Shown here piece by piece: positions 5,789 to 31,700 of a stretch of 64,000 nucleotides of DNA. Under the pieces are notes generated by a model. That model searched no databases. It was given only the letters and a program-made list of their open reading frames with translations, and was not told the origin of the DNA. Origin of the DNA: Candidatus Eiseniibacteriota bacterium. GTDB taxonomy: Bacteria > Eisenbacteria > RBG-16-71-46 > CAIMUX01 > VGJL01. Within the stretch, counting starts at the first letter, position 1. Every line of letters starts with the position of its first letter. A program made the position numbers and the translations under genes. Location of the stretch: assembly GCA_041946735.1 (NCBI GenBank), contig JBHGAY010000002.1:102368-166367 (forward strand). The letters are read 5' to 3'.

Positions 5789-8431
5789 ATGTCTTGCGCG
5801 CGCCACGGTGCGATCGTCGCGTTCCCCGTCCTCGCCTTGCTGCTCCTCGTCTTCGCCGCTCTGGCCGATCCTCCCCCGATCTCGCAGGAAACAGGCCTCG
5901 ACCACGGCTTCCGGTACTCCTACGACGCGACCATGGCGATGGCGGCGTCGGCCGCCCTCAGCGACTCCTCCGTCCTCTTCTGCTGGAGCGAGGACTCCCA
6001 CGTGATGGCGATCCCGTTCGGCAGGAGCGGGGAATCGATTGGAGGCAACCGCACGGTCCTGTTCGAGGGATCCTATCCGGACCTCTCGTCGCCGGATGCG
6101 AGCGGCTGGAAGATCGCGGCGCGCGGCGGGGGCACTCTCCACGTCCGCAACCTCGATCCCGCCTCGCTCGCGACGACGATCGACCGCACGATCGGGACGA
6201 CGCCGGGCGCGGCGATCGAGAACCCGGAGATCGCGAAGATCGGCGACGCGCACGTCGTCGCCTGGCAGGAAGCGGCGGGCTCGACGTACGCGTTGCGTAT
6301 GCAGCGCTTCGACTCGCTCCTCGAGCCTCTCGATCCCGAGCCGATCGACCTCGGTCCGTGCAGCGAGCGGACCTGCGATCTCGCGTCGACGGACAGCGGC
6401 GGAATCCTGATCTACGTCGATGGTGCCGGGGAGGCGGCGGTTCGGCTCCTCGGAGCGGACGGCCTCCCAGCCGGCGATCCGCGCCCGCTCGACGCTACAG
6501 AGACGTACGATCCCGAAGTGGCGGCGTGCCCCTGCGGGGATGGATGGTTCGTCGCCTGGAGCCGCACGTCCGGGATCGGCGCCGCTTTCCTCGCGGCGGA
6601 CGGCTCCCTCCTGGCTCCGGGGATCCTCGGCCTCTCTCCGTACCCGGACTACGGCATGTCCGCATCCGAGGATGCGGAAGGCGGCGTGCTCCTCGCGTAT
6701 CGCGAGGACGGCTACGCCATCTGGGCGCAACGTCTGCGGGCGGGAGTGGGAGCGGTCGGAAACCCGCTCATCCTCTCCGGCGACGCGCCGTACCTGGCGT
6801 TCGGCTTTCCAATGGATCTCCGGGAAGTGGCGTGCGCGTGGACAGGCGAATGCTTCGCCGTCGCGTGGACCAGCTATCACGACCCGCCCGTCGGCGGCGA
6901 TCGTCGCGAGGGCGGTGGCGCGCGGGATCGCAACTGGTTCGGCGCCTTCCCGGTCTACTCCCAGTGGGTAGCGCCGGACGGCGGGTTGCTGTACGGCAAT
7001 CCGTTCCCGATCAACGTGCTGAGCTCGCCGGCCGAGGCGACCGTCGTTCGTCACCGGGACACGTCCCTCGCGATCGTACGGGACGGGATGCGGGGCGAAT
7101 GGCTGCACACGCTCGTCCTCGGCCCCGAGGGCGGCGTCATCGAGACCCCCGCGCGTTACCGCACCGCCGCGGAGCCGGACGACTGCGAGCTGTGGGATTG
7201 TGAAACGTGGAGTATCGATCAATTGGCCGCAGCTCGAGACGGGACGGGCGCGGCGGTCGGCTACCGGCTGCGCACTCACTTTTCGAACGAGTACTACGAG
7301 ATGGACGCGGCCTATCTCGTGATCGATCGCCTTGCGGCGGACGGCTCGTTCCTCGATCGCGCTTCGAGCTCCCTCTACATCGGAAACAGCGAGCTTACGT
7401 CCTTCGCGATCGTCCCGATCAACGAGACGCGCATCCTCGGGGCGTACACGGCCGACGATTGGGGCGGCCGCGCACCCGAGAGCGGCTACGTGCAGCTCCT
7501 CGACTGGAGCACCGGCGAGCCGATGGCGAGCTGGCGCCTTCATCGGGAGGACAACTTGACTCCGGTGACGGGAATCACCGCAGCGCCCCTTCCCGGCGGC
7601 ACGCGGTTCCTGATCGCCTGGAACGAGGGCGGCGCGCTGCGCGCGGGCGTTCTCGACCTCGACGATCCTCCGGACGAGATCGTCGGCGCCGTCGTGCCTC
7701 CATCTGCGCCTCTCGCCGGCCGCCCGCGGCTGATCGCCGGTGAGAGTCAGGTTCTCTGCGCGTATCCGGCCGAGCGGGCCGATGGGTCGGACATCGAGGC
7801 GGTACGCTTCGACGCGCAGGGCGAGCCGATCGACGCGACGCCGATCGTCCTCTGCGGGATCGCCGGATCCCAAGGGAACGTGGACGGCACGTGGGACGGG
7901 GACCGCTGGCTCGTCACCTGGTCGACCACGGGCTACGGCGTCCCCCACGAGCTGCGTGGCAACCGCGTCGATCCGGCCGGGGTCGCTCTCGATGGCGACG
8001 GCTTCGCGATTGCGCCGGACATCCGGGTCCCCGCGAGCGTCTCCTCGGACGGCGGCGGCCTCGTTTCGCTCGTCCACAGCGCGCGGCGCTTCCTCTGGAT
8101 CGACGATACGGAGGGATCGTCCGCCGTGGAGGAGCAGGCGACGGCTGCGCTCTCGCTCTCGGGCGTGCGCCTGGGCCCGAGCCCGACGACCGGGACGGTG
8201 CGCCTCGCCGCGCCGCTCGCCAGCGGCACGCGCGCGAAGGTCACGATCGTCGACGCGGGCGGGCGTGTCGTGGCGGTGCGCGCCCTCGACGGCTCGGGCG
8301 GCCTCGATGCACGCCTGCTCTGGGACGGCCGGCGTGACGACGGCACACGCGCTCCCGCCGGGCTGTACCTGGTCCGGATCGAGTCGCCGGAAGGCGCGGC
8401 GACGGCGCGGAAGATCTTGCTCGTCCGCTAA
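5789..8431 (+). CDS. secreted repeat (β-propeller-like) protein with a T9SS-type C-terminal sorting domain
   Basis: Signal peptide MSCARHGAIVAFPVLALLLLVFAALA. Recurring hhAW blade-like motifs (VVAWQEA, FVAWSRT, AVAWTSY, LIAWNEG, LVTWSTT). The C-terminus is ...LLWDGRRDDGTRAPAGLYLVRIESPEGAATARKILLVR. GGAGG RBS. Confidence 0.75.
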   Translation: MSCARHGAIVAFPVLALLLLVFAALADPPPISQETGLDHGFRYSYDATMAMAASAALSDSSVLFCWSEDSHVMAIPFGRSGESIGGNRTVLFEGSYPDLSSPDASGWKIAARGGGTLHVRNLDPASLATTIDRTIGTTPGAAIENPEIAKIGDAHVVAWQEAAGSTYALRMQRFDSLLEPLDPEPIDLGPCSERTCDLASTDSGGILIYVDGAGEAAVRLLGADGLPAGDPRPLDATETYDPEVAACPCGDGWFVAWSRTSGIGAAFLAADGSLLAPGILGLSPYPDYGMSASEDAEGGVLLAYREDGYAIWAQRLRAGVGAVGNPLILSGDAPYLAFGFPMDLREVACAWTGECFAVAWTSYHDPPVGGDRREGGGARDRNWFGAFPVYSQWVAPDGGLLYGNPFPINVLSSPAEATVVRHRDTSLAIVRDGMRGEWLHTLVLGPEGGVIETPARYRTAAEPDDCELWDCETWSIDQLAAARDGTGAAVGYRLRTHFSNEYYEMDAAYLVIDRLAADGSFLDRASSSLYIGNSELTSFAIVPINETRILGAYTADDWGGRAPESGYVQLLDWSTGEPMASWRLHREDNLTPVTGITAAPLPGGTRFLIAWNEGGALRAGVLDLDDPPDEIVGAVVPPSAPLAGRPRLIAGESQVLCAYPAERADGSDIEAVRFDAQGEPIDATPIVLCGIAGSQGNVDGTWDGDRWLVTWSTTGYGVPHELRGNRVDPAGVALDGDGFAIAPDIRVPASVSSDGGGLVSLVHSARRFLWIDDTEGSSAVEEQATAALSLSGVRLGPSPTTGTVRLAAPLASGTRAKVTIVDAGGRVVAVRALDGSGGLDARLLWDGRRDDGTRAPAGLYLVRIESPEGAATARKILLVR

Positions 8432-8515: not shown

Positions 8516-8950
8516 TCAGTGGATCGCGGAGCCGGGCGGCACCTCGCGAAGCGGCGTCAGGATCGAGACGGTGCCGGCGCCGCTCGCCGCGAGCAGCATC
8601 CCTTGCGACCACTCGCCGCGCAGCTTCGCCGGCTTCAGGTTCGCGACGACGACGATCGACTTCCCTTCCAGCTCCTCCGGCTGATACCAGGGCGCGATTC
8701 CCGCGACGATCTGACGCTCGCCGCCCCCCTCGGGCCCGAGGTCGATCGCGATCTTCAAAAGCTTCTCGGCGTTCGGGTGCCGCTCGACGCGCACGACCCG
8801 CGCCACGCGCAGGTCGAGCTTGCCGAACTCCTCGATGTCGATCTCGGGCTTGCCTTCCGCCGGGCGGGTCTCGCCGGCCCCCTGCGGAGCGCCGGTTCCC
8901 TGCGGAGCGCCGGTCGCGGGCGGACGGGCCTCCTCGTTCTCGCTGCTCAT
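8516..8950 (-). CDS. csaA: tRNA-binding protein (CsaA/Trbp111 EMAP-type domain)
   Basis: LDLRVARVVRVERHPNAEKLLKIAIDLGPEGGGERQIVAGIA is the classic tRNA-binding OB-fold motif. The ATG at 8950 overlaps the upstream GT2 stop (ATGA). GGAGGA RBS. Confidence 0.85.
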   Translation of the reverse strand: MSSENEEARPPATGAPQGTGAPQGAGETRPAEGKPEIDIEEFGKLDLRVARVVRVERHPNAEKLLKIAIDLGPEGGGERQIVAGIAPWYQPEELEGKSIVVVANLKPAKLRGEWSQGMLLAASGAGTVSILTPLREVPPGSAIH

Positions 8951-9876
8951 GTTTCCTCCGGGGACTCCGTCCCCTCGCTCGCGATCCCCTTCTTCTCGCG
9001 CGCTCCCCGCTTCTCGGCCTCGAGGAGCGCCGTGTACTTCATCCCGGCGTAGAGGGCGTCCATGACGGCGACGACGAGCCCCGTCCTGCCGTCACGGAAT
9101 CCTCCGCGGACCAGGTAGCCTTTCACGAAGCGCAGCGGCGGACGGAAGAGCAGATCGAGGGCCGTCGTTCTGCGGCCTTCCGCGCGCGCCTGTTCGGCCC
9201 ACAGCCGCGACCACTCGCCGATCTTCTCGAAGTGATGCGCGACGTCGCGATAGCTCTCGTGCCAAAGGATGCCGCGCAGGCGCGCGGTCGGGCCGTCCAC
9301 CCGCACCTGCTCGTGCACGGAACGGTCGTCGATGCGGGCGCGCTCGCGATCGAAAAGACGCAGCACCGAGTCGCTTCCCCAGTTTCCGTGACGGATCTCC
9401 CGGCCAAGATACCGGCTCCGCCGCCGCATCCAGAACCCCGCCTTCCCGCGCGGCTCGGCGGTGGCGGCCGCGCAGGCGGCGGCGAGGTCCGGATCGATCC
9501 GTTCGTCGGCATCGAGCCAGAGGATCCAGCGGTGACGCGCGCGCGCGATCGCGAAGCGCTTGGAGCCGGCGAACCCTTCCCACGGACGGACGATCACCTC
9601 GGTCGCGAGCGGCCGCGCAAGCTCGGCGGTGCGGTCGCGCGTCGTCTCGTCGACGACGACGATGCGCTCCGCCGCCCAGGCCGCGGAGCGGAGGCAGGCC
9701 TCGATCCGGTCCTCCTCGTCCTTCGCGACGACGACGACCGAGACCGGCGCGGGGCGCGCGGCGGAGGGATCGGGCGGCGCCGGCGTTGCCGGCGCCGTTG
9801 CCGGCGGCGCCGTTGCCGGTGCCGGCGGCCGCGGCCGCGGCCGCGGCGGCTCAGCGGCGTGCGCCACGGGGGCCAT
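8947..9876 (-). CDS. family 2 glycosyltransferase (LPS-core type)
   Basis: From the ATG at 9876 (MAPVAHAAEP...) the protein reads VSVVVVAKDEEDRIEACL...WLDADERIDPDL, a GT-A DxD fold. A Pro/Ala-rich N-terminal extension is present. Confidence 0.8.
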   Translation of the reverse strand: MAPVAHAAEPPRPRPRPPAPATAPPATAPATPAPPDPSAARPAPVSVVVVAKDEEDRIEACLRSAAWAAERIVVVDETTRDRTAELARPLATEVIVRPWEGFAGSKRFAIARARHRWILWLDADERIDPDLAAACAAATAEPRGKAGFWMRRRSRYLGREIRHGNWGSDSVLRLFDRERARIDDRSVHEQVRVDGPTARLRGILWHESYRDVAHHFEKIGEWSRLWAEQARAEGRRTTALDLLFRPPLRFVKGYLVRGGFRDGRTGLVVAVMDALYAGMKYTALLEAEKRGAREKKGIASEGTESPEET

Positions 9877-11044
9877 GCGACCTCCTCCTCTCCCGCTCCT
9901 CCGCGGCGGCCTCGACGATCTCGAGGGCGCGGCGCGACGTGCGCGCGATGTCGAAGCGCTCGCGAACCCGGCGGCGTCCCCGCTCGGCGAGCGAGCGAGC
10001 GCGCGCCGGCTCATCGAGGAGCGAGGCGATCGCGCCGGCCAGCGCGCCGGGATGCGCGGGCGGGACGAGCACACCCGCGTCGCCGACCGTCTCGGGAATC
10101 ACGTGAACCTCGGTCGCGACGAGCGGAACGCCGAGCGCCATGTACTCGAGCGCGGAGCGGCAGACCGCCTCGCTGCCGGTCGAGGCGATCACCGCGGCGT
10201 CGAGCCCCGCGGCGAGCGCGAGCGGATCGTCCACGGCCGGCAGGACGGCGAAGCGGTCCGCGATTCCCGCCTCTCGCGCCATCGTCTCCACCGCCTCCCG
10301 GCCGAGCTGCCCCTCCGGTCCTGCGCAGACGAACCGCAGCCTTTCGGCGAGCGCCCCGCGCGCCGGATCGAGCAACGACCGCGCCGCGGCGACGAGGTCG
10401 GCGTGCCCCTTGACCGGGCTGTAGCGCGCGAGCATCCCGGCCACGACGGCGCCCTCCGGCCACCCCCGCTCCTCGCGCAGGCGCCGGCGCGCGCACTCGC
10501 GATCGATCGTCCCACCGGTCTCCGGATCGATCCCCGCCGGGAGCACCTCGATCCGCTCCGCCGGGACGGCGAGACGCTCGAAATATCCGGGGATCATGAA
10601 GCGTCCGGACGGAAGGACGCGGTCGCTCCCCTCCACGTAGAGCCAGCGCGCCGCCGGGCCCGCGGCCGGCCGGCGTATGTCGGCGCGGAACCGGAGAAGC
10701 GGGCTCCTCGTCGCCCGCAGCGCGGCGGCGGCCGCGAAATGCCCGGAGCCGGTGTGCACGAAGACGGCAGCGAGGCGCCCCGACACGGCCGCTTCCCGGA
10801 GGTCGCGGAATGCGCGGAGCCACCGATCCGGGCGGCGCGACGCGAGATCCCGCCAGCGCGAGCCGTCCATTCCGGCGCTCGCCGCGCGGTCGGCGAGAGG
10901 GCTCGACGGAGGCGCGACGATGCGCGAGGCGAACCCATGGCGGCGCACCCCCTCGGCCAGGGAGAAGGCATGGTAGGCAAGGGCGCTCCACCATCGCACC
11001 CAGGCGAGATGCAAGACGTATCTCTCGGACTCCGGCTCTTCCAC
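9851..11044 (-). CDS. family 4 (GT1-type) glycosyltransferase
   Basis: The C-terminal domain reads ...SPVKGHADLV...EYMALGVPLVAT...AEAI... The N-terminus is YVLHLAWVRWW. The GTG at 11044 is a tentative start. It overlaps GT2 by 26 nt. Confidence 0.7.
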   Translation of the reverse strand: MEEPESERYVLHLAWVRWWSALAYHAFSLAEGVRRHGFASRIVAPPSSPLADRAASAGMDGSRWRDLASRRPDRWLRAFRDLREAAVSGRLAAVFVHTGSGHFAAAAALRATRSPLLRFRADIRRPAAGPAARWLYVEGSDRVLPSGRFMIPGYFERLAVPAERIEVLPAGIDPETGGTIDRECARRRLREERGWPEGAVVAGMLARYSPVKGHADLVAAARSLLDPARGALAERLRFVCAGPEGQLGREAVETMAREAGIADRFAVLPAVDDPLALAAGLDAAVIASTGSEAVCRSALEYMALGVPLVATEVHVIPETVGDAGVLVPPAHPGALAGAIASLLDEPARARSLAERGRRRVRERFDIARTSRRALEIVEAAAEERERRRSHGPRGARR

Positions 11045-11236
11045 TCGGACGGTGAGGCTAGCATGCGGGACGGAGGGCCTCAATCGGGGCGGCGACTCGA
11101 CCAGCGGCGCCGCCCTTCGCGACTCCGGCCCGCGCGGCCGGTTTCGCGTGGACTTCCCGTCGCCGGCGACCCTACAGTGGACCGCGATCCTGCCCGGCGT
11201 CCCGGGCGCTCGATGCTTGGCGATGAGGCTCTGCCG

Positions 11237-13264
11237 ATGCCGTTTCGAAGGACCGGATCCGTCTTCCTCCTGCTTCTCCTGCTGTGGGCCGCGACCGCCG
11301 CTTCCCCGGCATTTGGGCCGCCGGCTTCCGGGCCGCTCGCTTCCGAGCGGCTCGCCTCCGAGCGGCTCGCCTCGGTGCCGCTCCCGAAGGGACAGGCGTT
11401 CGTGGATCCGCCGGGAGGCGCGATCGGTCCGCTCCAGACGATCCGGATCGTTTCGCGATGGGACTCGGCGGGCTACGCGATCGCCCCCGACTTCTCGGAG
11501 CTGGAAGGCGGAGAAGCGGGCGACTTCGCCGTCGCGGACAGCGGCAACGGCTCCTACCTGATCGTGTATACGACCGGCCCGATGGCGGGGCTCTCGAGCG
11601 CCGCGGGCCTGACGATCCCGATCCAGGCGACGAACTCGATCCAGGGGAGCTTCACCGATCGCACCCTCCGCGCATGCCGCAATCTCGGCCGCCGGCCTGA
11701 GCACATCGCGACCGAGATCGTTCGCCCGCTCGAGGTCTACCATCCCGGCGACTCCCTCGTCGTCCGCACGCGCTGGCAGCAGGGCGACGCCTCGGGGATG
11801 ACCGTCACCGCGGATTACGCATCGCTCGCTAAGCCGGGCTCCGGCGTGCCGGCGCAGACCGTCGCGATCGTCGACACGCTCCTGCAGATCAAGGAGTACA
11901 CCTTCTCGTGGAAGATCCCGGGGGTCGGGCAGCTTCTCCAGGAGGGCAACGACCTGCCGCTCACCTTCGTCGGCCGCGATGCGCTGTGCAGCGAGGTGCG
12001 GGTCTCCCCGGTGACGATCGACCTCCGCCTGAGCGGCGCCCCCGCGCTCCTCTCGCACCGGGTCCTCGAGCCGGCCGGCCGCGGCGTTCGTGCCGGGGAC
12101 ACGCTGATCCTCTCCTGCGTCTGGGACCGGCCGGGCTACGACCTGCGGCCGGACTTCTCGGCGCTAGATGGCACGAGCGGCGACGGCAGCTTCGCGGTCG
12201 TCGACCTGGGAGGCGGCAGCTACGAGATCCGCCACACGGTCGCCCCGCTCGGCGATCTTCCCGACGCGCTCGTGCCGGTGCCGGTCACGGCGACCGATCC
12301 GTTCGGGGATCGTTTCACCGACAACTCGATCTCGATCAGCCGCAACCGGTCCACGCCGGGGCCGGTGCATCTGGGAACCGACACGCGGCGCTCGCGCCGC
12401 GTCTACAAGGGCAACGACTCGCTCGTCGTCGTCAGCCGCTGGACGCACCCGGCCGGCCTCGGCATCCAGATGCGCCCGCTGTTCACCGGGCTCGTTCCCA
12501 CGTTCGCCGACACCGAGGCGGTCGTGACGCGGCGCGGCGTCCCTTCCTCGGTCGACACCTTCTTCGTCGCCTACCGGCTCCCGCAGAAGGAATCGGGGCT
12601 CCTCGCTCCCGACGGAGAGCGGATCCGCATCGGCGTCGTCGCTCGCGACTCGCTCTGGACCGAGGTCGTCTACGACTCGATCCTCGTCGATCTCGACACG
12701 AAGGCGCCGCCGGCCTCGCCCACGCTCGACCCTTTGCCGGCGAGCACCGACGTAAGTCATATCCTGGTGACCGGCATCGCGCCGGAGGCCTACGCCGTCG
12801 CCTTCATCCGCAACGACGTGCTGCGCTTCCGCTCGCCGGTCGACAGCTTGACCGGACGGTTCGAGGCGGAGATGGATCTCGTTCCCGGCTCGAACAAGAT
12901 CACCGCTTGGGGGGAGGACTTCGCCGGCAACAAGACCCCGCTCGGGAACAACGTCTTCACGAACTACATCACCGGCAGGGTCACGAGCTACCCGACGCCG
13001 TTCCGCCCGGAGGACGAGATCTCCGTCGGCGATCCGGAGGGAATGCAAGAGGCGCTTGTGCAGATCTACAACCTGGAAGGGGACGTCGTTCGCGAGTTCC
13101 GCCAGGAGGGAGGAAGCTTCTTCGAGGCTCGTTTCGAATGGGACGGGAAGGACGTCGACGGGAGGATGGCGCAGCCGGGCTACTACCTGGTTCGCATCCA
13201 CCGGACGTCCACGAGCGGGAAGACGCGCAACGAGGTGAGCTCGATGCTCTTCCGGACCAACTGA
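11237..13264 (+). CDS. secreted Ig-like repeat surface protein with a T9SS-type C-terminal sorting domain
   Basis: Signal peptide MPFRRTGSVFLLLLLLWAATAASPA, then (LASER)x3. Three internal ~90-aa repeats (IRIVSRWDSAGYAIAPDFS..., TLILSCVWDRPGYDLRPDFS...). The C-terminus is ...EARFEWDGKDVDGRMAQPGYYLVRIHR...LFRTN. The upstream part of ORF 9560.. is antisense junk. Confidence 0.75.
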   Translation: MPFRRTGSVFLLLLLLWAATAASPAFGPPASGPLASERLASERLASVPLPKGQAFVDPPGGAIGPLQTIRIVSRWDSAGYAIAPDFSELEGGEAGDFAVADSGNGSYLIVYTTGPMAGLSSAAGLTIPIQATNSIQGSFTDRTLRACRNLGRRPEHIATEIVRPLEVYHPGDSLVVRTRWQQGDASGMTVTADYASLAKPGSGVPAQTVAIVDTLLQIKEYTFSWKIPGVGQLLQEGNDLPLTFVGRDALCSEVRVSPVTIDLRLSGAPALLSHRVLEPAGRGVRAGDTLILSCVWDRPGYDLRPDFSALDGTSGDGSFAVVDLGGGSYEIRHTVAPLGDLPDALVPVPVTATDPFGDRFTDNSISISRNRSTPGPVHLGTDTRRSRRVYKGNDSLVVVSRWTHPAGLGIQMRPLFTGLVPTFADTEAVVTRRGVPSSVDTFFVAYRLPQKESGLLAPDGERIRIGVVARDSLWTEVVYDSILVDLDTKAPPASPTLDPLPASTDVSHILVTGIAPEAYAVAFIRNDVLRFRSPVDSLTGRFEAEMDLVPGSNKITAWGEDFAGNKTPLGNNVFTNYITGRVTSYPTPFRPEDEISVGDPEGMQEALVQIYNLEGDVVREFRQEGGSFFEARFEWDGKDVDGRMAQPGYYLVRIHRTSTSGKTRNEVSSMLFRTN

Positions 13265-13294
13265 GCGCTGGATGAAGGACGGGACGGAGCAAGG

Positions 13295-14314
13295 ATGATC
13301 GATCGCCGCGACCCGGCAGCCGCCCGCGGGCAGGCGCCCACGATCTCGACCTCCCTCTCTCGCCGCGTGCGCGGCCCGCTGTCGCTCGCTCTTCTCGCGG
13401 CCTCGCTCGTCGCGATTCTCGCCTGCGCGGCGCCCGCGCGCGCGCAGGTGGCCGGAGCGTTCCCGCATCTCGAGCCGTGGCCGGCCGCCCTCGCCCTCGG
13501 AGGCGCCGAGGAGGGGCTCGGGCGCGGAACGGAGGCGACGCTCGAGAATCCCGCCGGGATGCTGGCCGTCCCGGGCAAAGGTTTCGCCTTCTCGCACGCC
13601 TCGCTGTTCGAGGGCGGGCTCGTGCACCACCAGGCGGCGGCGATCTCCTGGGCGCGTTCGGCGAAGCGGATGCGCTGGCAAGGCTCGAACATCGTCACGG
13701 AGGCCGGCGAGGTGCGATCGGCGTGGGGCCTCGCGTTGACGAACCTCTCCGGCGATCTCCCGGGGAGCGACACCTACGGCGAGCTGCAAGTCGGCGTCGC
13801 CTACGCGCGCCGCCTTCCGCTCGCGATCGACGGCGGAATTCGCGTCCGCTTCCTGCAGGCGCGGAGCACCGTCGACGGCTCCGATGGAGGGGGCTACGCG
13901 CTCGACCTCGGCCTGTCCGGCGAGATCGCCGGCTTCCGCCTCGGAGGCGTCGCGCGCTCCTTCTTCTCCGACACGCGTTGGGACCGCTCGCTGGACGAGC
14001 CGCTCCCGGCCGGCTTCGACCTCGCGCTCGAGCGCCCGCTCGCCGGCGGCGTCTCGTCCCGCTTCGGCGCGACGATCCGCGAGAACGGGGAGCCGCAGCG
14101 GGTGACCGGCGGGGCGTCGTGGGACGTCCCGGGAATGCCGCTCGCCCTGCTCGGGGCCGCCTCGCTGCGCGATACGCGCGCCGAGAACCGCGTGGAGCCG
14201 TCGGCCGGCGCCACGTTCCGCGTCGGGATCTTCGCCGCCGCCTACGCGGTCCGCTTCGGTCCGGCCGGACTCGGCGAAATCCATCGCTTCAGCCTCCGCG
14301 TCGCAGTTCCCTGA
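13295..14314 (+). CDS. outer-membrane β-barrel, PorV/PorQ/PorP-like T9SS-associated family (putative)
   Basis: A signal peptide ends ...APARA|QVAG. The N-terminal motif is LALGGAEEGLGRGTEATLENPAGMLAVPG (GGA..G.G..A...NPAGL-type). Alternating β-strand pattern; C-terminal ...SLRVAVP. It sits 30 nt after the cargo gene. Confidence 0.6.
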   Translation: MIDRRDPAAARGQAPTISTSLSRRVRGPLSLALLAASLVAILACAAPARAQVAGAFPHLEPWPAALALGGAEEGLGRGTEATLENPAGMLAVPGKGFAFSHASLFEGGLVHHQAAAISWARSAKRMRWQGSNIVTEAGEVRSAWGLALTNLSGDLPGSDTYGELQVGVAYARRLPLAIDGGIRVRFLQARSTVDGSDGGGYALDLGLSGEIAGFRLGGVARSFFSDTRWDRSLDEPLPAGFDLALERPLAGGVSSRFGATIRENGEPQRVTGGASWDVPGMPLALLGAASLRDTRAENRVEPSAGATFRVGIFAAAYAVRFGPAGLGEIHRFSLRVAVP

Positions 14315-14316
14315 TC

Positions 14317-14400
14317 GCTCGGCCGGAGAGCTCGGCTGGAGAGCTCGGCTGGAGAGCTCGGCCGGAGCGCTCGGCCGGAGCGCTCGGCCGGAGCGCGGCG
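14317..14400. repeat. tandem 13-nt repeat (gctcggcYggagM) x6
   Basis: The sequence reads gctcggccggagag ctcggctggagag ctcggctggagag ctcggccggagcg ctcggccggagcg ctcggccggagcg. It starts immediately after the stop at 14312-14314. Confidence 0.8.
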
Positions 14401-14622
14401 GGCCTCGGCCGCTCGGAGGCCGCAGGCCGGCGACGCCGGCCGTTCGGCGTTGGCGGGGCGGCGCAATCCGGAAGCCGCGAGCCGGCGGAGTCGATCGATT
14501 GCCCCGCCGGAAGCGTGGTGATAGTGTGAGGACCCTTGCGGCCGACGAGCGGGCGTCTCGGGGTTCCGATTGCCCGTCGGCTCTGAACCGTTCACCCTAC
14601 CTCCCTCGGAGAAAACGCCCTG

Positions 14623-16584
14623 ATGGATGCGACGTATCGGATTTCGATCCCCGTTCTCTATGGCATCGAGAACTGGGGCAGCGGTTACTTCGACGTCAAC
14701 GCGGCCGGCCACCTGATGGTGAAGCCGTTCCGCTCGGGCCCCGGCGTCGACCTCTTCCAGGTCGTCGAGGAGCTGCGCAAACGCCGCTGTCCGACGCCCG
14801 TCCTGCTGCGCTTCCCTCAGGTGCTGGAGACGCAGATCCGTCATCTCCACCAGGCGTTCCAGAGCGCGATCACCGAGTTCCAGTACGGAGCCCGCTACCA
14901 GGGCGTGTTCCCGATGAAGGTCAACCACCGGCGAGACGTCGTGGAGGAGCTTCTTCGCGTCGGCAGCCGCTATGACTTCGGCATCGAGGTCGGCTCGAAG
15001 GCGGAGCTGTACATCGCCCTTTCGATCCCCCAGCCGGAGGACAGCCTGCTGATCTGCAACGGCTTCAAGGACGACTCGTTCATCGAGATGGCGTTCTGGG
15101 GACTGAAGACCGGCAAGCGCGTCGTGATCGTGATCGAGCAGGTGCGTGAGATGTACGCCATCTTGAAGCGGATCGAGGAGACCGGGCTGGTCCCGACGCT
15201 CGGCCTGCGCGGGCGCCTCTACACGCGGGGCAGCGGCAAGTGGGAGGAGTCGGGAGGAGAGACGTCGAAGTTCGGGCTCTCGACCGTCGAGATGATCGAC
15301 TGCCTGCGGATCCTCCAGGGGCGGGGACTCGAAGGGGCCCTCAAGATGCTCCACTTCCACATCGGCAGCCAGATCACCGACATCCGGAGGATCAAGGCGG
15401 CGGTGAAGGAGGCGAGCCGCGTCTACTCGAAGATCCGGAAGATGAAGGTCCCGGTCGAGTACCTGAACGTCGGAGGCGGCCTCGGGGTCGACTACGACGG
15501 GTCGAAGACGCCCTCCGACTCGAGCGCGAACTACACGGTGCAGGAGTTCGCGAACGACGTCGTCTACACGATCCGCGAGATCTGCGACGCGGAGGACGTG
15601 CCGGTGCCGACGATCGTCTCGGAGAGCGGGCGCGCGGTCACGGTCTATCACTCGATGCTGATCGTTTCCGCCGAGAACCGCTCGGACGCGAGCACGCTCA
15701 CGCGCAACGAGATGATCAGCGCCGAGTCGGACAACCAGGTTTTGCGTGAGCTGTTCGAAATCGCCCGCGACATCAGCGTGAAGAACTTCCGCGAGTACTA
15801 CCACGACGCGCTGCAGCAGCGGGAGGAGCTGTTCACCCTCTTCGATCTCGGCTACATCGACCTGCTCGAGCGCGGGCGCGGCGAGGCTCTCTTCGAGGAG
15901 ATCTGCACACGCGCGCTACGCTTCGCGAAGCAAACGAACTACGTGAGCGACGAGTTCGACCTGCTCGAGAAGGCGCTCCGGAAGAAGTACGTCGCCAACT
16001 TCTCCGTCTTCCAGTCGGTCCCCGACTCGTGGAGCATCGGGCAGCTCTTTCCGGTCCTCCCGATCCACCGCCTGAACGAGTTCCCGACCGAGAACGGCAT
16101 CCTGGTCGACCTCACCTGCGATTCCGACGGACAGATCGACAGTTTCGTCGACGTGAAGGACATCAAGGAGATCCTGGAGCTGCACCCGACGGTCAACGGC
16201 GGCCCGTACTACATCGCGATCACGCTTCTCGGCGCCTATCAGGACGTGATGGGGGACTTCCACAACCTGTTCGGATCGGTCAACGAGGCGCACGTCGTCG
16301 TCGACGAAAACGGGCGCCATCACATCAGGAAGATCCTTCGGGGGAACTCGATCGAGGAGATGGCGCGGATCGCGGGCTTCGAGATCGAGGATCTGCAGAA
16401 GGAGTTCTCGTTCCGGATCGCGACCGGCGTGCGTCAGGGCCGCATGAGCGAAGCCGAGGGGGCGAGCCTGCTCGAGGCCTACCGGACGCGCGCCAGGGAA
16501 TCGACCTATCTGAGCCCGTATCCACCAGCGGCCGAACAGCCGGCGGCCCCTTCGAACGGGAACTTCCGGCAGGCTGAGGCGTAG
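14623..16584 (+). CDS. speA: biosynthetic arginine decarboxylase
   Basis: A 653-aa ORF reading MDATYRISIPVLYGIENWGSGYFDVNAAGHLMVKPF...FPMKVNHRRDVVEEL...HFHIGSQI, a full-length SpeA-family match. Confidence 0.9.
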   Translation: MDATYRISIPVLYGIENWGSGYFDVNAAGHLMVKPFRSGPGVDLFQVVEELRKRRCPTPVLLRFPQVLETQIRHLHQAFQSAITEFQYGARYQGVFPMKVNHRRDVVEELLRVGSRYDFGIEVGSKAELYIALSIPQPEDSLLICNGFKDDSFIEMAFWGLKTGKRVVIVIEQVREMYAILKRIEETGLVPTLGLRGRLYTRGSGKWEESGGETSKFGLSTVEMIDCLRILQGRGLEGALKMLHFHIGSQITDIRRIKAAVKEASRVYSKIRKMKVPVEYLNVGGGLGVDYDGSKTPSDSSANYTVQEFANDVVYTIREICDAEDVPVPTIVSESGRAVTVYHSMLIVSAENRSDASTLTRNEMISAESDNQVLRELFEIARDISVKNFREYYHDALQQREELFTLFDLGYIDLLERGRGEALFEEICTRALRFAKQTNYVSDEFDLLEKALRKKYVANFSVFQSVPDSWSIGQLFPVLPIHRLNEFPTENGILVDLTCDSDGQIDSFVDVKDIKEILELHPTVNGGPYYIAITLLGAYQDVMGDFHNLFGSVNEAHVVVDENGRHHIRKILRGNSIEEMARIAGFEIEDLQKEFSFRIATGVRQGRMSEAEGASLLEAYRTRARESTYLSPYPPAAEQPAAPSNGNFRQAEA

Positions 16585-18491: not shown

Positions 18492-19967
18492 TCAGAGGCT
18501 CAGACCGGCGGTCAGCCTCAGCATTGCCACGCGGCGGTCGACATCGACGACCGTGGACTGCGGGTTGATGAAGGGATCGCCGGGCGACTCGTAATAGAAC
18601 TTCCTCAGCTTGTAGTCGACGATCTCGTAGGCCACGTCATAGCGAAGATTGCCCGTCTCGAATCCGAGACCGAACGTGAAGGAGTCGGTGTCGATGTCGC
18701 CTCCCGCCCACTGGTCCGGATCCGGGCCGCCGTTGAGCTTCGCGACGGACAACGGTCCTCTGTGATATCCGATCCGCAGGGGAAGGTCGATTTGCTTGAA
18801 CCGCAGCCAACGTCCCTCGGCTCCAATGTGGAAGCTCGTGACGTCGCGAAGCGGAAGCGACGGGTTCGATTCCATCCCCAGGAAATCCTCCCGGTACTCG
18901 ATCTTCGTCTCCGACCAGTTCTGGCGGTTCACCTCGACCGCCACCCGCACCTGTGGGATAGGCTGGAACCAGCCGCCGATCGACAGGAGCGCCGGGACGT
19001 CCATGTCGTAGCCCGCGATCCTCCCGAAGATGCGCTGCTGCGGAGCGCCGGGAGCACTGAGAACGAGGTAGTCCAGCCGGCCGCCGGTCACCTCCACCGT
19101 GTAGCCGGGCGTGAACCGCACGCCGATCCCGCCGAAGTTCGGGCGCCGCGCCTGGATGCCCAGGTCGGCCGAGATGCCTCGATAGCGATAGCGCGTCTTC
19201 AGGTATCCGCCCGCCGAGTTCGCGCCTCCGGTCGCGACGATCGACTCGATCTTCGAGCTGAGGCGGCCGGTCAGGTAGTTCAAGTTCGCCCCGACCGACA
19301 CCACATCGGGGATCAACTGCGCGGCGGCGGAGGCGGAGGCCGCGTCGACGCCTCCCTCTTCCTTGCCATCGACCGCGAGAGTCACCGGGAAGGCGAGCCC
19401 TTCGCCGAAGACAAGATCCGAGACGATCTCCTCCGGATAGGACGTGTCGAGGTAGCGGCGGAAGCTGATCGCGCCGGCGACCGGACGCCCGAGCAGCTCG
19501 CCCGAGATCCCCGCGCCGAGCATGTTGCCCCGGAGGTTCGACTTCAGATTGACGTCGTACCGCTGCACGGCGAGCAGCGGCGAGTTGGGAATATTGAACG
19601 TGTCGGGATATCCCGAGGTCGAGCCCGAGGATCGGATCCAGCGAAGGTCGCCGGTCACGTTCGGGCGCTGGAGCCATCCCAGCCCGGCCGGGTTCCACGA
19701 GATCGCCTGCAGATCGGTGGCCTCGCCGACGTAGGCGCCACCCATTCCATGACCCACCGCGCTCGCGCGCACTCCGGTCATGTCGAGCGGCCGGAAGACG
19801 AGCGACGGCTGGAGCGTCTCCAGCGTGGCGATCCCGATCGTGCCGAGGTCGGTCTCGACCAACTGTGCGGAGACCGGCGAGGGCATGAGAGCCGCGGCGC
19901 AGGCGACGAGAGCGAGCGCGAAGATGGCCGGGGCTGCGAGACGACGAACGACACCCACTCCTCTCAT
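18492..19967 (-). CDS. outer-membrane β-barrel, PorV-like T9SS-associated family (putative)
   Basis: The start is the internal ATG at 19967, with the signal peptide MRGVGVVRRLAAPAIFALALVACAAA. The motif GMGGAYVGEATDLQAISWNPAGLGW is present and the C-terminus is ...LRLTAGLSL. ORF-track residues 1-150 are junk. Confidence 0.65.
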   Translation of the reverse strand: MRGVGVVRRLAAPAIFALALVACAAALMPSPVSAQLVETDLGTIGIATLETLQPSLVFRPLDMTGVRASAVGHGMGGAYVGEATDLQAISWNPAGLGWLQRPNVTGDLRWIRSSGSTSGYPDTFNIPNSPLLAVQRYDVNLKSNLRGNMLGAGISGELLGRPVAGAISFRRYLDTSYPEEIVSDLVFGEGLAFPVTLAVDGKEEGGVDAASASAAAQLIPDVVSVGANLNYLTGRLSSKIESIVATGGANSAGGYLKTRYRYRGISADLGIQARRPNFGGIGVRFTPGYTVEVTGGRLDYLVLSAPGAPQQRIFGRIAGYDMDVPALLSIGGWFQPIPQVRVAVEVNRQNWSETKIEYREDFLGMESNPSLPLRDVTSFHIGAEGRWLRFKQIDLPLRIGYHRGPLSVAKLNGGPDPDQWAGGDIDTDSFTFGLGFETGNLRYDVAYEIVDYKLRKFYYESPGDPFINPQSTVVDVDRRVAMLRLTAGLSL

Positions 19968-20431
19968 GACCTCTCCCCCAGGAGCAGCGTCACGATGACG
20001 GCCCCTGTCGTCCAGAAGCTCGCCGAGCGAGCGGTCCGCGCGATGTCGAAACGCACCTGGTCCACGTTGGTGATGTCGCTCTTCAGCAGCATCTTGTCGG
20101 GAGCGGGAGGCTCGAGCGAGACGCGGGCGTTCTCGAGACGCGAGACCTGCTTCTCGACCCCGTCCGCGTCGCGGATCGGGACGAGTCCGGTGAGGACGAT
20201 CTTCTGGTCGTCGACCTCCTTCACCTTGCCTTCCGAGACGACCCGGGGCTCGCGGAGCACGACGTTCTGGCCCGGAGCGATCCGGCCCTCGATCTGCTCT
20301 CCGGTCCTGAAGGTCAACACGACGCGCTGATGCTCGTCGTACGTCAGATCCTCGACCGGAACGCGCTTCGCGCAGCCGAGCGCAAGCAGGAAACATCCGA
20401 TCATGGCCAAGAGCCACGGGACTCGTTTCAT
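19964..20431 (-). CDS. small lipoprotein of unknown function
   Basis: MKRVPWLLAMIGCFLLALGCAKR carries a lipobox. The stop overlaps the downstream barrel's ATG (ATGA at 19964-19967). Confidence 0.55.
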   Translation of the reverse strand: MKRVPWLLAMIGCFLLALGCAKRVPVEDLTYDEHQRVVLTFRTGEQIEGRIAPGQNVVLREPRVVSEGKVKEVDDQKIVLTGLVPIRDADGVEKQVSRLENARVSLEPPAPDKMLLKSDITNVDQVRFDIARTARSASFWTTGAVIVTLLLGERS

Positions 20432-26942: not shown

Positions 26943-28747
26943 CCCTTCTTCTCCTCCGCGCCCCCGGCGTTCCGGCCGGTGCGGCGCAGGTCCTGGAGCA
27001 GCGGCCGCACCTCGCTCGCCTCGTGGCTCTTCGGAAACTTGAGGATCAGGTCCTCGTAGCGGCGCACGACCGCCTCGCTGTCGCCGTACTTCTCGCGCAT
27101 CTTGTCCGCCACGGCGCGAAGGACGGGGGGAGCGGCGAAGCCATCGGCATGCCGCGCCGCGAGGGTGTCCGCGCGGGCCGCGGCCTCGTCCAAGCGGCCG
27201 AGATCGAGGAGCAGGAGGCTCTCCTCGCGAAGAAGATCCTCCTCGGCCGGGCACCGGTCGCACTTGCTCGACGCCTCGCGCACAATCTCGAGTCCGCGAT
27301 CGAAGGAGCCGATGCGGCGCTGGTAGGCGACCTGCCCCAGCGCCGCGCCGGTGACGTCTCCCGATCCCTCGATCCGCGTCAGCAGGAGAATCCGGTCGAG
27401 CGCGTCGTTCACCCGCGTTCCGCCCTCGAACTCCTTGACGATCCGTTCGTAGAGCGCCTTCGCCTCCTCCGTCTTGCCGGAATAGAAGAGAATCTCCGCC
27501 TGCTGGAAGACCGCCTCCTCCTTGCCGGCCGGATCGCTCGCCTGCTCCTCGATGCCGTGGAGCGCCTGGCGCGCCTCTTCGTAACGGCCGGCCGCAAGCT
27601 GCATCTCGGCGAGCGCGAGACGGGCTTTCGCGAGGCGCGCGGAAGCATCGGGAGTCCGGGCGTTCTGCAGCAGCGAGACGATTTCCTGATAGGCGGCCGC
27701 CGCGCGCTCCGCGTCGTGCTGTTCGTCCGCGAGCATGCGGGCGCGCTGCTCGAGAGCGGTGAACGCCTGCCGTCCGCGTGGGAAGCTGTCGTACGCCTGG
27801 CGGAACGCGGCGTCCGCTTCGGGATAGCGCTGGAGGCGGCGAAGGGCGGAGGCGCGGTAGATCTGCGCCTGCTGCAGGTCCTCGCCGGAGAGGCCGAGCG
27901 AGGCTGCCAGATCGGCCGCGCGGAGGACCGGCTCCTTCATCTCGCGCTCATCCAGCAGCGCGAGGTGCGAGAGCATCACCTTCCCTTTCGCGCCGCGCAC
28001 CTCGTCGAGCCGCTTCGCCTCGTCGATCGATTCGTCGGCGCGGCCCAGGAACAGGAGCGCCGCGACGAGAAGCTCACGCAGCGACGGCTCCTCCGGCCTC
28101 TTCTCGATCTCCGCGCGCAGGGGAGGCAGCGCCTTCTCGCCTAGCGAGTCGGCGCGGATCAGCGACTCCATCTCGTCGCGCACCCAGACGCCGGCGGCGC
28201 CGCCGCGGCGGTGGATCTCGAGGCAGACGGAGAAGGCCTCCTCCGGATGGTGCGCCTCGCGCGCGACGCGCTCCAACTCGACGAGGAGCGGAGTCGGATC
28301 GCCTCCGGCCTCGATCCGCTCGTCGGCCGCCTTGCGGTAGAGCGCGCGCGCCTCGTCGAGACGCCCCATCTTGCGCAGGCAGGTTCCCTCGAGGAGCCGC
28401 AGGTCGGGATTGTCGGGGAACTGCTCCTTCAGGGTCTCGATCAGCCGGTACGCCTGCTCGAACTTCTCCTGCCGCATGAGGACCTGAACGTCCCGCATGC
28501 CCCGCTCGACGGTGATGCGAGGGATGGGAGCCTGCGAGCCGCTCGGGGGCGGCGCGGGCCGGCCCGGCGAAGGGATGGTGACCGCGGGCGGCTGCGGGCG
28601 GCGGTCGTCCTGCGGCCGGCCGTCCTGCGGCCGGCCGTCCTGCGCGAGCGCCGCCGAGAGGGCGAGCGAGAGCGCGAGTGAGAGCGGGAGCGGGAGCAGA
28701 AGCAGGATGGAGGCGCGAAGCGCCCGCGGGATCGCCCGGCGCCTCAC
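26939..28747 (-). CDS. secreted tetratricopeptide-repeat protein
   Basis: The GTG start at 28747 overlaps the upstream stop (GTGA). The signal peptide is VRRRAIPRALRASILLLLPLPLSLALSLALSAALAQ, followed by (DGRPQ)x2. There are many TPR-like helical hairpins. ORF-track residues 1-741 are junk. Confidence 0.7.
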   Translation of the reverse strand: MRRRAIPRALRASILLLLPLPLSLALSLALSAALAQDGRPQDGRPQDDRRPQPPAVTIPSPGRPAPPPSGSQAPIPRITVERGMRDVQVLMRQEKFEQAYRLIETLKEQFPDNPDLRLLEGTCLRKMGRLDEARALYRKAADERIEAGGDPTPLLVELERVAREAHHPEEAFSVCLEIHRRGGAAGVWVRDEMESLIRADSLGEKALPPLRAEIEKRPEEPSLRELLVAALLFLGRADESIDEAKRLDEVRGAKGKVMLSHLALLDEREMKEPVLRAADLAASLGLSGEDLQQAQIYRASALRRLQRYPEADAAFRQAYDSFPRGRQAFTALEQRARMLADEQHDAERAAAAYQEIVSLLQNARTPDASARLAKARLALAEMQLAAGRYEEARQALHGIEEQASDPAGKEEAVFQQAEILFYSGKTEEAKALYERIVKEFEGGTRVNDALDRILLLTRIEGSGDVTGAALGQVAYQRRIGSFDRGLEIVREASSKCDRCPAEEDLLREESLLLLDLGRLDEAAARADTLAARHADGFAAPPVLRAVADKMREKYGDSEAVVRRYEDLILKFPKSHEASEVRPLLQDLRRTGRNAGGAEEKKG

Positions 28748-31700
28748 TGTCCGCCGCCCTCCTGCAGCGCCCGGAAGTACTCGTCGACGATGCGGCGGAA
28801 GTCGCCCGGGATCGGATCCTGCGAGCCTTTCAGGATCCCGCGACGGAGGCGCTCCGCGGCCGTGAGGGTCGAGGACACGGGGGGAGGCGAGATCGGGTTC
28901 TCTGCGTCGATCCCGGTGCGCGAGCGCCGTTGCTCCTCGAAGTCCTGCCGGCGCACGCTGCGCTGCGCGGTCAGCAGGCGGCTCAGGATCTTCTCCTGCC
29001 TGTCGAGGATCCGCGGATCGACGTTCTTCTCGCGCATCTCCTTGACGACATCCTCCATCTCTTCGCCGAGGTCTCCCAGCCGGCCGAGGACGTCCTTGCG
29101 ATCCTGCATCGACTGCGCGAGATCCTGCAGCCCGGCGCGAATCTGCATCTGTCGCGCCGCGAGCTGCTCCATCCGTCCAGAGCCGTCCTGCGGGAGCCTC
29201 CCTCCCTGCATCTGGCTCATCGCGTCCTGCGTTTCCTGATTGAGTCCCTGCTGCTGGCTCGTCAGTCCCTGCATCTGCTGCATCGGATTCGGATTGTTGC
29301 AGGAGGAGGACGAGGAGCACATGCTCTGGTTCGATTCGAGCAGGCTCGCGACCGCCATGTCGATCGACGTCCCGGTCTGGCGGCCCAGCGTGACACCGCC
29401 GGTCCGCTGCCCGGTTTCGAACGCGTTGGTCGCGTCGCCGAGCTTCTGAAGGATCTCGCCGAGCATCTTCGCCTGTGCCCCGGTGATGAACGGCGTTTGC
29501 CGCGCGATCGCGTAGATCTCGGAGACCACGTCGGAGACGGAGCGCTCGATCCGGTTTTGCTCGACCGCCAGGTCCCGCGTGCTCTTCTGCGCCGCTCCCT
29601 CGACCAGCGATTCCTGGCTCTTGGAGAGATCGACCAGGTCGCCGGCGAGGGCGAGCAGCTTGCGCGACAGCTCCTCGGTCATCGACTGGTTCATCTGCTG
29701 CTGCATCTGGCGCATCTGATCGGCGAACTGCTGGATCTGGCTCTTCGCCTTCTTCCCGGAGCGCATCGCCCCCCGCCGGTTGTTCTTGCCCATGCACATC
29801 TTGCCCGACTGCATCTCTTCGGACGCGGACTGCAGGGCCTGCTGCGCCTGCTGCCCCTGCGGGCTCTCCAGGTTCTGCTCCATCTGGGGATGGCTCTTCT
29901 CGGCGAGCTTCGACAGCTCCTCCATCTGCTTGCGGAGCTCGGCGAGCTCCTTCTGCAGCGCCTCCTGCTGCTCGGCGAGCTTCTGCGCCTCCTCGGGACT
30001 CATCGACGCCGTCGAGTCGGGCTTCGAGGAGTCCTGCGGCGTGCCGGCCTGCTGATTGAGCTGCTCCTGCTCCTTCGCGAGCTGCTCGGCTCGCCGGATC
30101 GCCTCGTCGAGCTTCTCCTCCGCCAGCATCTTCTCGAGCATCGCGATCGTCCGGTCGAGCCCCTGCTCGATCGCCTGCTGGGTGAGCTTCATCTTCTCGA
30201 GCGCCTTCTGCACCTCCTTCGGATCGAGGGAGCGCATCGCCTCGCGCATCTGCTCGAGCATGTTGTGGAACTCGGGGCTCTGGATCTCGCGCATCATCTC
30301 CTGGATCCGCGCGATCTTCTCGACGATCTCCGGGCTGAAGAGCTGCCCTTGCTGCATCCGGTCCATCTGGCGGTCCATCGCGGTCGCCATCTGGTCCATC
30401 TTCTGCAGGATCTCCTCCTGCTTCTGGAGGAACTGCTCCATCTCGTTCTTCTGGTCCCAGTCGATCGCCTGGTCGCGCCGCATCTCGCGCGACATGTCCT
30501 CGAGCTCCTTGCGGAGGTCGACCTGCTTGTCGAGCGATTCGCGCAGATCCTCGAGGCCCTCGTGCCGCTCCTGCTCCTGCTGCGCGTACATCTGCTCGAG
30601 GGTCGGGAAGCGGATCGAGTACTCCGGCGAGACGGTCGTCTTCGGTCCGCTCACCGCGTCGTTGTCGGTCAGCTCCAGGTGGTAGCGGATCTCGTCGCCC
30701 GGCGTGAGCGCGATCTCCTCGAGGTTCCACGGGTAGGCGACGCGCGCTTCGGTCTCGCTCTGCCACCGGGTGAGAGAGATCCGGGAGGATGGTTGATCGT
30801 TGCGGTGATAGACGAGGTCGAGCTTGCGGATCCCGAAGTCGTCCGCGCAGTCCGCCTCGACGACGACTCGCATCTCGGGGGGAAGATCGACCTGCTCGCC
30901 CGGACCGACGAGGAAGAGGCTCGGCATCCGGTCGGGGATCGGATCGATCCGGAACGACTCCGACGTCCACGCGGCGCTTCGCTCTGCGCCGCCATCGCTT
31001 CCCGACAGTTCGACGCGGAACTGGTCCGCCTCGCGCACCGGGACCTTCGCCGACAGCACCCCTTCCTCGCCCGCCTCGAGCGGGATCGTCCGGCCGGAGT
31101 CGAACCGCAAGCGTCCGCGCGCGTCGGGACGGCTCACGGCGACCAGCAGCTGCGCGTCGCTCCCCTTCAGCGCGGCGATCGAGGCATGCGGGGAGAGCTC
31201 CTTCTCCGGAGCGAGCCCCGTGTAGTCGGGGAAGCGGATCCGCTTCTCGTAGCCGGTCGCGCGGTACGGCTCCTGCACCGCGACCCGGTAGGTGCGGGAG
31301 CGATGCCGATCGAGGGAAACCATGTACTCCGTCTCGGCCTGGACATCGGCGAGCGTCGCGAGGAACTCGGTCCCCACGTCCGCCTGCATCGGCAGGCGCG
31401 ACCAGGCGCTCCCCCCCGTGCGGTAGAAGAGGGCCGGTGCGCCTTCGAGGCCGACGAGGCGCGCGCGCACCGGCAGCGAGGCGCCGCGCAGGATCGAGGC
31501 GTCCCCGGGCGTGACGAGGATCTCGCTGCTGTCGATCGCCACGGCGCGTCCCGGATGCAGGATCTGCGCCGCCCCGCGCGTGACCGCCTGCGGAGCGAGC
31601 GCCGCGAGCAGGAGGATCGCGACGAGCGCGCCGCCCGCCTGGGCGAGGGGAACCGACAGGGTGCGCGAGCGAGCGAGATCACGGTAACGGATCGAGGCCG

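Follow-up and report, generated by a model that had tools for sequence, protein, structure and literature searches.

A PorV/PorQ-family outer-membrane barrel encoded next to an Ig-string C-terminal-domain protein in Candidatus Eiseniibacteriota

The gene pair and its products

A 64,000-nucleotide stretch of contig JBHGAY010000002.1 from Candidatus Eiseniibacteriota (hereafter the window) contains a pair of adjacent genes on its forward strand. The upstream gene encodes a secreted string of immunoglobulin-like (Ig-like) domains that ends in a C-terminal domain (CTD), and the downstream gene encodes an outer-membrane barrel (Table 1). The host lineage is an uncultured member of the FCB (Fibrobacterota-Chlorobiota-Bacteroidota) group and lies outside the Bacteroidota. 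According to the initial annotation, a CTD-bearing Ig-repeat protein is followed 30 nt later by a 339-aa predicted barrel; both open reading frames (ORFs), the CTD, the repeats and the spacing were confirmed. The TGA stop of the upstream gene is followed by 10 codons before the barrel gene, and because both genes share one reading frame, the barrel ORF could not start further 5'. The window has a base composition of about 70% G+C, and the G+C content at third codon positions (GC3) of the upstream gene is 0.90. The barrel protein is identical in sequence to the NCBI entry 'hypothetical protein ACE15D_01830 [Candidatus Eisenbacteria bacterium]'. Around the gene pair, neither a sigma-70-like promoter nor an Rfam family was detected, and a terminator search returned one terminator-like site, which is below the chance level.

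Table 1. Features of the gene pair and of related genes in the window
Feature	Position	Strand	Remarks
Upstream gene (Ig-string CTD protein)	11237..13264	+	675 aa
Sec-type signal peptide	11237..11317	+	~27 aa, MPFRRTGSVFLLLLLLWAATAASPAFG; n-region, hydrophobic core, small residues; cleavage site inferred by eye, approximate
Four beta-sandwich domains, D1-D4	11384..12700	+	~residues 50-152, 153-266, 267-374, 375-488; duplicated pair
Fifth Ig-like domain	12761..12943	+	~residues 509-569; AF2 strands 509-568; weak Glucodextran_B/Big-like match
FlgD_ig-type C-terminal beta-sandwich (CTD)	12995..13261	+	~residues 587-675; presumed sorting/docking domain
Ribosome-binding site of barrel gene, GGAG	13283..13286	+	read from the sequence, 8 nt 5' of ATG 13295
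Barrel gene	13295..14314	+	339 aa; PorV/PorQ-family 14-strand outer-membrane barrel
Barrel signal peptide	13295..13444	+	residues 1-50, ending ARA|Q
N-terminal plug (hatch)	13445..13576	+	residues 51-94; four short helices at 63-90 in the AF2 model
Motif singled out by the initial annotation, GGAEEGLGRGTEATLENPAGMLAVPG	13499..13576	+	residues 69-94, within the plug; contains NPAG
Fourteen transmembrane beta-strands	13577..14308	+	residues 95-338; DSSP on the AF2 model
Invariant W-D-R-S...P motif	13979..14008	+	residues 229-238; candidate partner-binding site
Secreted protein with FlgD_ig/T9SS-type-A-like CTD	5789..8431	+	880 aa; function unassigned
S8 subtilase with the same kind of CTD	41092..43566	-	TIGR04183 25.8 bits, above cutoff
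M28-like aminopeptidase with the same kind of CTD	62274..63986	-	secreted
Second, larger FadL-fold barrel	18492..19886	-	~464 aa; sub-threshold matches to PorV_fam (43 bits), BamG (35 bits) and Toluene_X
ORF preceding the second barrel	19964..20410	-	148 aa; no family

The homologs of the upstream protein carry signal peptides in the same position as the window protein. Pairwise comparison of its domains shows that a pair of them, ~110 residues each, is duplicated, D1 resembling D3 (35% identity, E 2e-18) and D2 resembling D4 (27% identity, E 2e-7), a repeat that was not detected by self-BLAST of the entire protein. The AlphaFold2 (AF2) model is all-beta with six beta-sandwich domains; its confidence is modest (pLDDT 67.9, pTM 0.37) because the alignment behind it consists of 4 sequences, a homolog search with the upstream-protein profile having returned 4 proteins only. 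Foldseek searches with this model matched generic Ig-domain strings alone, such as contactins, the S-layer protein SbsB, alpha-2-macroglobulins and the Ig domains of PorU. No enzyme domain or set of conserved catalytic residues was found in Pfam, NCBIfam or the alignment. Just after the signal peptide, a 15-bp tandem repeat within the gene (11327..11383, 3.8 copies) encodes ASERL repeats, which are missing from all homologs and thus represent a lineage-specific linker insertion.

The CTD matches PF13860 (FlgD_ig) with 27.4 bits, just above the cutoff of 27. Models of two CTD proteins from the T9SS (type IX secretion system) attachment complex match its end as well: the PorU model NF033707 in the last ~120 residues only (25 bits), and the PorZ model NF052228 in the last ~75 (19 bits). 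Pfam detected no Peptidase_C25 domain in the upstream protein, which is neither a member of PorU nor a full-length match to PorZ. Its CTD aligns with the generic CTDs of other window proteins, save for 3 inserted residues and a last strand that differs. Together with the fifth domain, the CTD is the best-conserved portion of the protein over all of the related loci described below.

The downstream gene product had been predicted to be an outer-membrane barrel, and its AF2 model (pLDDT 83.6, pTM 0.76) has 14 strands and an N-terminal plug, as is characteristic of the FadL fold. If translation began at the alternative GTG codon 13367, the signal peptide of the barrel would measure 26 aa. In an alignment of 20 barrel homologs with 47-56% identity (A1), the signal peptide ends in ARA(E/D/Q) in every homolog and is followed by an invariant GAFP. 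The mature barrel has ~289 aa, while FadL-type transporters have ~400-420 (PDB chain lengths 404-444).

When A1 is mapped onto the AF2 strands, conservation is concentrated in the plug (mean 0.77) and on one rim of the barrel. The odd-numbered connections L1, L2, L3, L4 and L7 range from 0.70 to 0.89 and the even-numbered ones from 0.51 to 0.66; overall, odd and even connections differ at 0.73 versus 0.58 (Mann-Whitney p 2e-4). The residues W229, D230, R231, S232 and P238 are invariant in A1 and are located in the sole long connection (residues 226-239), which is presumed to be extracellular loop L4 if a FadL/PorV topology is assumed. Likewise, the conserved face as a whole is presumed to be extracellular, provided that both termini are periplasmic as in FadL and PorV. 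Conserved extracellular loops are unusual in porins, and ordinary porins show the opposite pattern. The conservation of these presumed extracellular loops would thus fit a fixed protein partner.

The plug region aligns with the N-terminus of the PorV_fam model and with PorV (6h3i_F), but also with the FadL-type transporter TbuX. The motif GGAEEGLGRGTEATLENPAGMLAVPG had been likened to the conserved motif of PorV and PorQ. This likeness stands insofar as the motif aligns with the start of PorV_fam; it is not diagnostic, as the motif is shared by TbuX and the NPAG-containing motif of the second barrel in the window is the very stretch that matches Pfam Toluene_X. For this reason, GGAEEGLGRGTEATLENPAGMLAVPG marks the plug throughout the FadL superfamily and is not specific to PorV.

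Profile searches were more informative on the family of the barrel. The relevant NCBIfam models have curated cutoffs of 90 bits (NF033709, PorV_fam), 250 bits (NF033710, PorV), 220 bits (NF033711, PorQ) and 325 bits (NF052325, PorV2). The barrel scores 14.8 bits with the PorQ equivalog, and in the NCBIfam scan it matched neither PorV2 nor BamG (NF053685). Pfam returned no family at E<=1, Toluene_X (PF03349) included, which places the barrel outside the FadL/TodX family as modeled there. The nearest relatives outside its clade, on the other hand, score 45-81 bits with PorV_fam, some of them over the full length. A HMMER search with A1 against 1.8 billion representatives retrieved 421 relatives, mostly of 300-330 aa. 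Among 76 of these relatives, NCBIfam matches were to PorV_fam (75; best 2e-59), PorV2 (61), PorQ (56; best 1e-56) and PorV (50), compared with 2 to BamG and 1, a weak one, to PorP. Pfam matched UPF0164, Toluene_X and PorV weakly in the same set, Toluene_X in 15 of the 76 and PorP/SprF in 3.

A PDB sequence search with A1, a narrow profile, gave no meaningful match. A broader profile combining the barrel clade with its sister clades (A4) was required, and it matched Flavobacterium johnsoniae PorV (6h3i_F) at E 2.5e-10, followed by TbuX (0.011), CymD (0.066) and 3dwo (0.13). PorV is the top structural match of the barrel as well as its sole significant PDB sequence match. Based on the A4 E-values and on the 75 of 76 relatives that match PorV_fam, the barrel is closer to PorV than to other families of the FadL fold. 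Within this fold it belongs, as a divergent member, to the PorV/PorQ branch, without being a PorV, PorQ or PorV2 equivalog. The PorV/PorQ affinity proposed in the initial annotation is hence upheld by the profile searches, albeit at scores below all curated cutoffs. The proposed likeness to PorP/SprF is not: this is a different family from PorV/PorQ, and its models TIGR03519 (NCBIfam) and PF11751 (Pfam) have no match in the barrel at E<=1, so that, judged by sequence, the barrel falls outside PorP/SprF.

Five distant relatives (P0097, P0120, P0125, P0133 and P0173) are 570-864 aa long, with the barrel at the N-terminus and extra domains after it. The set containing them shows TPR, HEAT or LysM matches, which suggests that the long relatives are fusions of PorV/PorQ-like barrels with periplasmic modules.

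Conservation of the pair

A homologous CTD protein is encoded immediately 5' of the barrel gene in 13 of 13 related loci examined, with a spacing of -14 to +7 nt. In this count L001 and L007 are one record; the contigs L003 and L004, which come from two samples, are nearly identical. With A1 alone, the locus search yields 4 Eisenbacteria loci. In the Eisenbacteria loci, the barrel is 50-59% identical to that of the window and the partner is 41-46% identical over its full length (tblastn). The barrel start overlaps the partner stop by 8-11 nt in these relatives, and the gene order is constant: tRNA_bind and the glycosyltransferase genes GT2 and GT1 point away from the pair on one side, and partner, barrel and speA follow one another on the other.

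A second high-GC clade (L009, L010, L011, L013, L014 and one JGI contig) has barrels with 24-30% identity to that of the window. Here, a 552-590-aa FlgD_ig protein is encoded 1-7 nt ahead of the barrel gene, and a NUDIX gene lies upstream. The second-clade partner is ~25% identical to the window protein (BLASTP E 1e-13, 438 residues), and partners in this clade bear an additional FlgD_ig-like segment near the N-terminus. In a contig labelled Krumholzibacteria (L012), the gene for a 568-aa FlgD_ig/Big protein and the start of the barrel gene share 14 nt. The pair is followed on this contig by a rhomboid protease gene (8960..9760), the start of which overlaps the barrel stop, and by the gene of a 1586-aa Peptidase_C25 and FG-GAP protein (9915..14675) whose CTD is of type A (36.6 bits, above the TIGR04183 cutoff). 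The C25 protein partially matches the models of the PorU sortase (85.6 bits) and of PorU2, and on its sequence it is a candidate sortase beside the pair.

The flanks of the pair therefore vary between lineages: Eisenbacteria have GT1/GT2 and speA, the second clade has NUDIX, and the Krumholzibacteria contig has the rhomboid and PorU-like C25 genes. As every one of the 13 related loci retains the pairing in spite of these changing flanks, it goes beyond chance. This conserved synteny supports the role of a dedicated partner that had been suggested for the barrel.

A possible carrier-substrate pair

The two genes may constitute one operon and specify a stable outer-membrane complex in which the barrel is the private carrier or anchor of the Ig-string protein, an interpretation to which we give slightly better than even chances. 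It draws directly on the gene anatomy, the barrel fold, the PorV/PorQ sequence affinity, the internal repeats of the partner, and the linkage and spacing of the pair. Because the genes stay together in distant relatives, the barrel is probably a private surface anchor of this one protein. In the proposed mechanism, both genes would be translated in equal amounts, and the Ig-string protein, with its six Ig-like beta-sandwiches, would cross the inner membrane via Sec. It would then cross the outer membrane by a T9SS-like route, guided by its FlgD_ig-type CTD, which is related to type A sorting domains. At the surface, the barrel would capture the CTD and keep it uncleaved, presumably by binding it at the conserved rim that is predicted to face outward. 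The resulting 1:1 complex would make the barrel act as PorQ does for PorZ, or PorV for PorU, in Porphyromonas.

In P. gingivalis, the subcomplexes PorU:PorV and PorQ:PorZ anchor PorU and PorZ, respectively; PorU, PorZ and PorQ have a stoichiometry of 1:1:1, and PorV is in ~16-fold excess (PMC5562754). By analogy, the Ig-string/barrel pair is best read as a stoichiometric carrier or anchor of this type. PorQ-PorZ resembles the proposed complex in that a PorV-family barrel is dedicated to one surface CTD protein, with an uncleaved CTD and a 1:1 ratio (PMC5562754; PMC10947112), where the partnership in the window would be the counterpart. PorQ is also similar in size (335 model positions, compared with the 339 aa of the barrel), and the wider relatives of the barrel include strong PorQ matches, even though the barrel itself is far from the PorQ equivalog (14.8 versus 220 bits). 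PorZ is a two-beta-propeller protein, whereas the partner in the window is a string of Ig-like domains. The genes of the pair are adjacent and often overlapping, unlike porQ and porZ, which are not known to be neighbours, and they occur in Eisenbacteria and Krumholzibacteriota rather than in Bacteroidota.

PorU-PorV likewise combines a CTD protein with a 14-strand barrel of the FadL fold as its anchor, as may be the case here. In Bacteroidota, the order of porU and porV is that of the window pair, with the CTD protein first and the barrel second. PorU-PorV differs in that the window partner lacks a C25 peptidase domain and the barrel lacks both a PorV equivalog match and long loops. Moreover, the tight 1:1 coupling of genes seen here contrasts with the large excess of PorV, a general shuttle. 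The pairs SprB-SprF and PG1035-PorP, in which a cargo gene with a type B CTD is followed by the gene of its own anchoring barrel (PMC9143113), share this layout. They are different in that the window barrel carries no PorP/SprF signal and the CTD is FlgD_ig/type A-like rather than type B. The initial annotation took SprF/PorP-like pairs as its precedent; PorQ-PorZ and PorV-PorU, in which a PorV-family barrel holds one given CTD protein, are closer than SprB/SprF (PMC5562754; PMC10947112).

Several observations weigh against a T9SS-type carrier. Neither SprA/Sov, PorK/L/M/N, GldK/L/M/N nor PorU was found among the scanned proteins of the 64-kb window. The CTD misses the cutoffs of the T9SS type A models (TIGR04183, 11.7 versus 23 bits; PF18962, 12.7 versus 27 bits). 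The barrel scores 31.2 bits with PorV_fam NF033709 (cutoff 90; E 1.6e-7), over residues 62-208 only, and does not match the PorV equivalog NF033710 at E<=1. Its connections are very short, 2-6 residues each apart from a single one that is 14 residues long, while the loops by which PorV binds CTDs are long and extend into SprA (PMC10994853). The extracellular placement of the conserved loops depends on an assumed topology. Lastly, pairwise identities of barrel and partner correlate with an r of 0.98, but this adds little, since shared descent or co-inheritance alone predicts such a correlation.

The leading alternative, conceivable if fairly unlikely, is that the pair is part of the secretion or attachment machinery itself, with the barrel as a general PorV-type shuttle or PorQ and the Ig-string protein as a stand-in for PorZ or PorU. 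The standing of PorV as top structural and sole significant PDB sequence match would agree with this, as would the housekeeping-like retention of the pair in at least two FCB lineages. The partner is about as conserved as the barrel (41-46% by tblastn versus 50-59%), which is unusual for an adhesin, and porU and porV are adjacent genes in Bacteroidota. In addition, the Krumholzibacteria pair shares a gene run with the 1586-aa C25 peptidase that partly matches PorU, although such a protein adjoins the pair in just 1 of the 13 related loci. The partner, however, has neither a C25 domain nor a Cys/His pair conserved across clades, and the PorU and PorZ models match its CTD only. The barrel is ~80-100 residues shorter than PorV, with short connections, and a second, higher-scoring PorV_fam-like barrel is encoded only 4 kb away. 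The stop/start overlaps imply equimolar synthesis, as opposed to the ~16-fold excess of PorV (PMC5562754).

A bolder variant, which we regard as doubtful, is that the pair represents a hitherto unrecognised, ancient core module for outer-membrane protein sorting in non-Bacteroidota FCB phyla: a minimal PorV/PorQ-type barrel with an Ig-string substitute for PorZ (or another attachment-complex subunit), which might connect secreted proteins with a surface glycan that the adjacent glycosyltransferases make. Alternatively, the barrel might anchor the Ig-string protein with no T9SS translocon involved.

It is rather improbable that the two proteins form a complex independent of T9SS, in which FlgD_ig would be a mere docking module and the barrel would be bound from the periplasm or reached via another export route. 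Core T9SS genes were not observed among the scanned window proteins, and the CTD exceeds the FlgD_ig threshold but not those of type A, both of which would favour such a complex. The CTDs of the clade also have an insertion and a terminal strand that set them apart from the generic CTDs of this genome, and the second-clade partners have their extra FlgD_ig-like segment near the N-terminus. The homology of the barrel, on the other hand, is specifically to the T9SS carriers PorV and PorQ. Four window proteins, including two hydrolases, share the CTD at their extreme C-terminus, a hallmark of sorting signals, and the S8 protease and the Krumholzibacteria C25 protein both exceed the TIGR04183 cutoff.

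FadL/TodX/TbuX transporters have the 14 strands, the N-terminal plug and the NPAG-type plug motif in common with the barrel, and Toluene_X is weakly matched in 15 of the 76 wider relatives. These similarities could indicate an ordinary FadL/TodX-type importer of hydrophobic compounds, adjacent to the upstream gene without functional meaning, yet this is very unlikely. The barrel itself has no Toluene_X match at E<=1 and no significant sequence match to these transporters, the profile match to PorV being eight orders of magnitude better than that to any FadL-type chain. It is also much shorter (~289 aa in mature form versus ~400-420) and locked to the gene of a CTD protein in 13 of 13 related loci, at near-zero or overlapping spacing and with changing flanks. 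That the barrel serves the BAM (beta-barrel assembly machinery) complex as a BamG-like accessory subunit is hardly credible, given that BamG matches 2 of the 76 wider relatives and not the barrel, that BAM genes are absent nearby and that the BamG signal in the window belongs to the second barrel.

The dedicated T9SS carriers known to date are either PorP/SprF-type barrels beside type B cargo, or PorV and PorQ holding PorU and PorZ, and all of this work is on Bacteroidota. The window pair adds a PorV/PorQ-family barrel whose gene is locked to that of a single non-enzymatic Ig-string protein, across deep divergence, in uncultured FCB phyla (Eisenbacteria and Krumholzibacteriota). In current annotation each of the two proteins is listed as hypothetical and slips past Pfam; together they mark a family to which annotation pipelines could give a name. 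Should the two form a complex of carrier and substrate, the pair would provide a small co-evolving system for the recognition of CTDs by PorV-type barrels, and the principle that each anchored surface protein has one barrel would extend past type B cargo and past the Bacteroidota.

Other genes of the window

With the upstream protein, four proteins of the window bear T9SS-type-A-like CTDs, which indicates that the organism makes wide use of such a C-terminal tag. Among the four genes, that of the upstream protein alone is adjoined by a barrel gene. A literature search retrieved no paper that ties Eisenbacteria to T9SS. The second barrel of the window is a candidate for the general PorV, for a BamG or for a transporter. 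At the corresponding position, the Eisenbacteria loci L001-L004 have a pair of genes for proteins of ~500 and ~150 aa.

Two further ORFs on the reverse strand were noted. One (37357..39363, 668 aa) has no family match at all, while the other (28744..32103, 1119 aa), which adjoins the gene of a TPR protein, has a weak match to DUF4175 only. Downstream of the pair, the 308-nt spacer between the barrel gene and speA contains a 13-bp tandem repeat, CGCTCGGCCGGAG (14316..14396; 6.2 copies, 94% matches), which begins 2 nt past the barrel stop codon and has no Rfam match.

On the other side of the pair, GT2 and GT1/GT4 glycosyltransferase genes (8947..11044, reverse strand) are divergent from the upstream gene at a distance of ~190 nt. 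The Eisenbacteria loci L001-L004 show the same divergent layout, and in L011 and L013 of the second clade a GT1 gene lies ~6 kb upstream. The glycosyltransferase neighbourhood could reflect a link to a surface glycan, or it could merely be inherited synteny.

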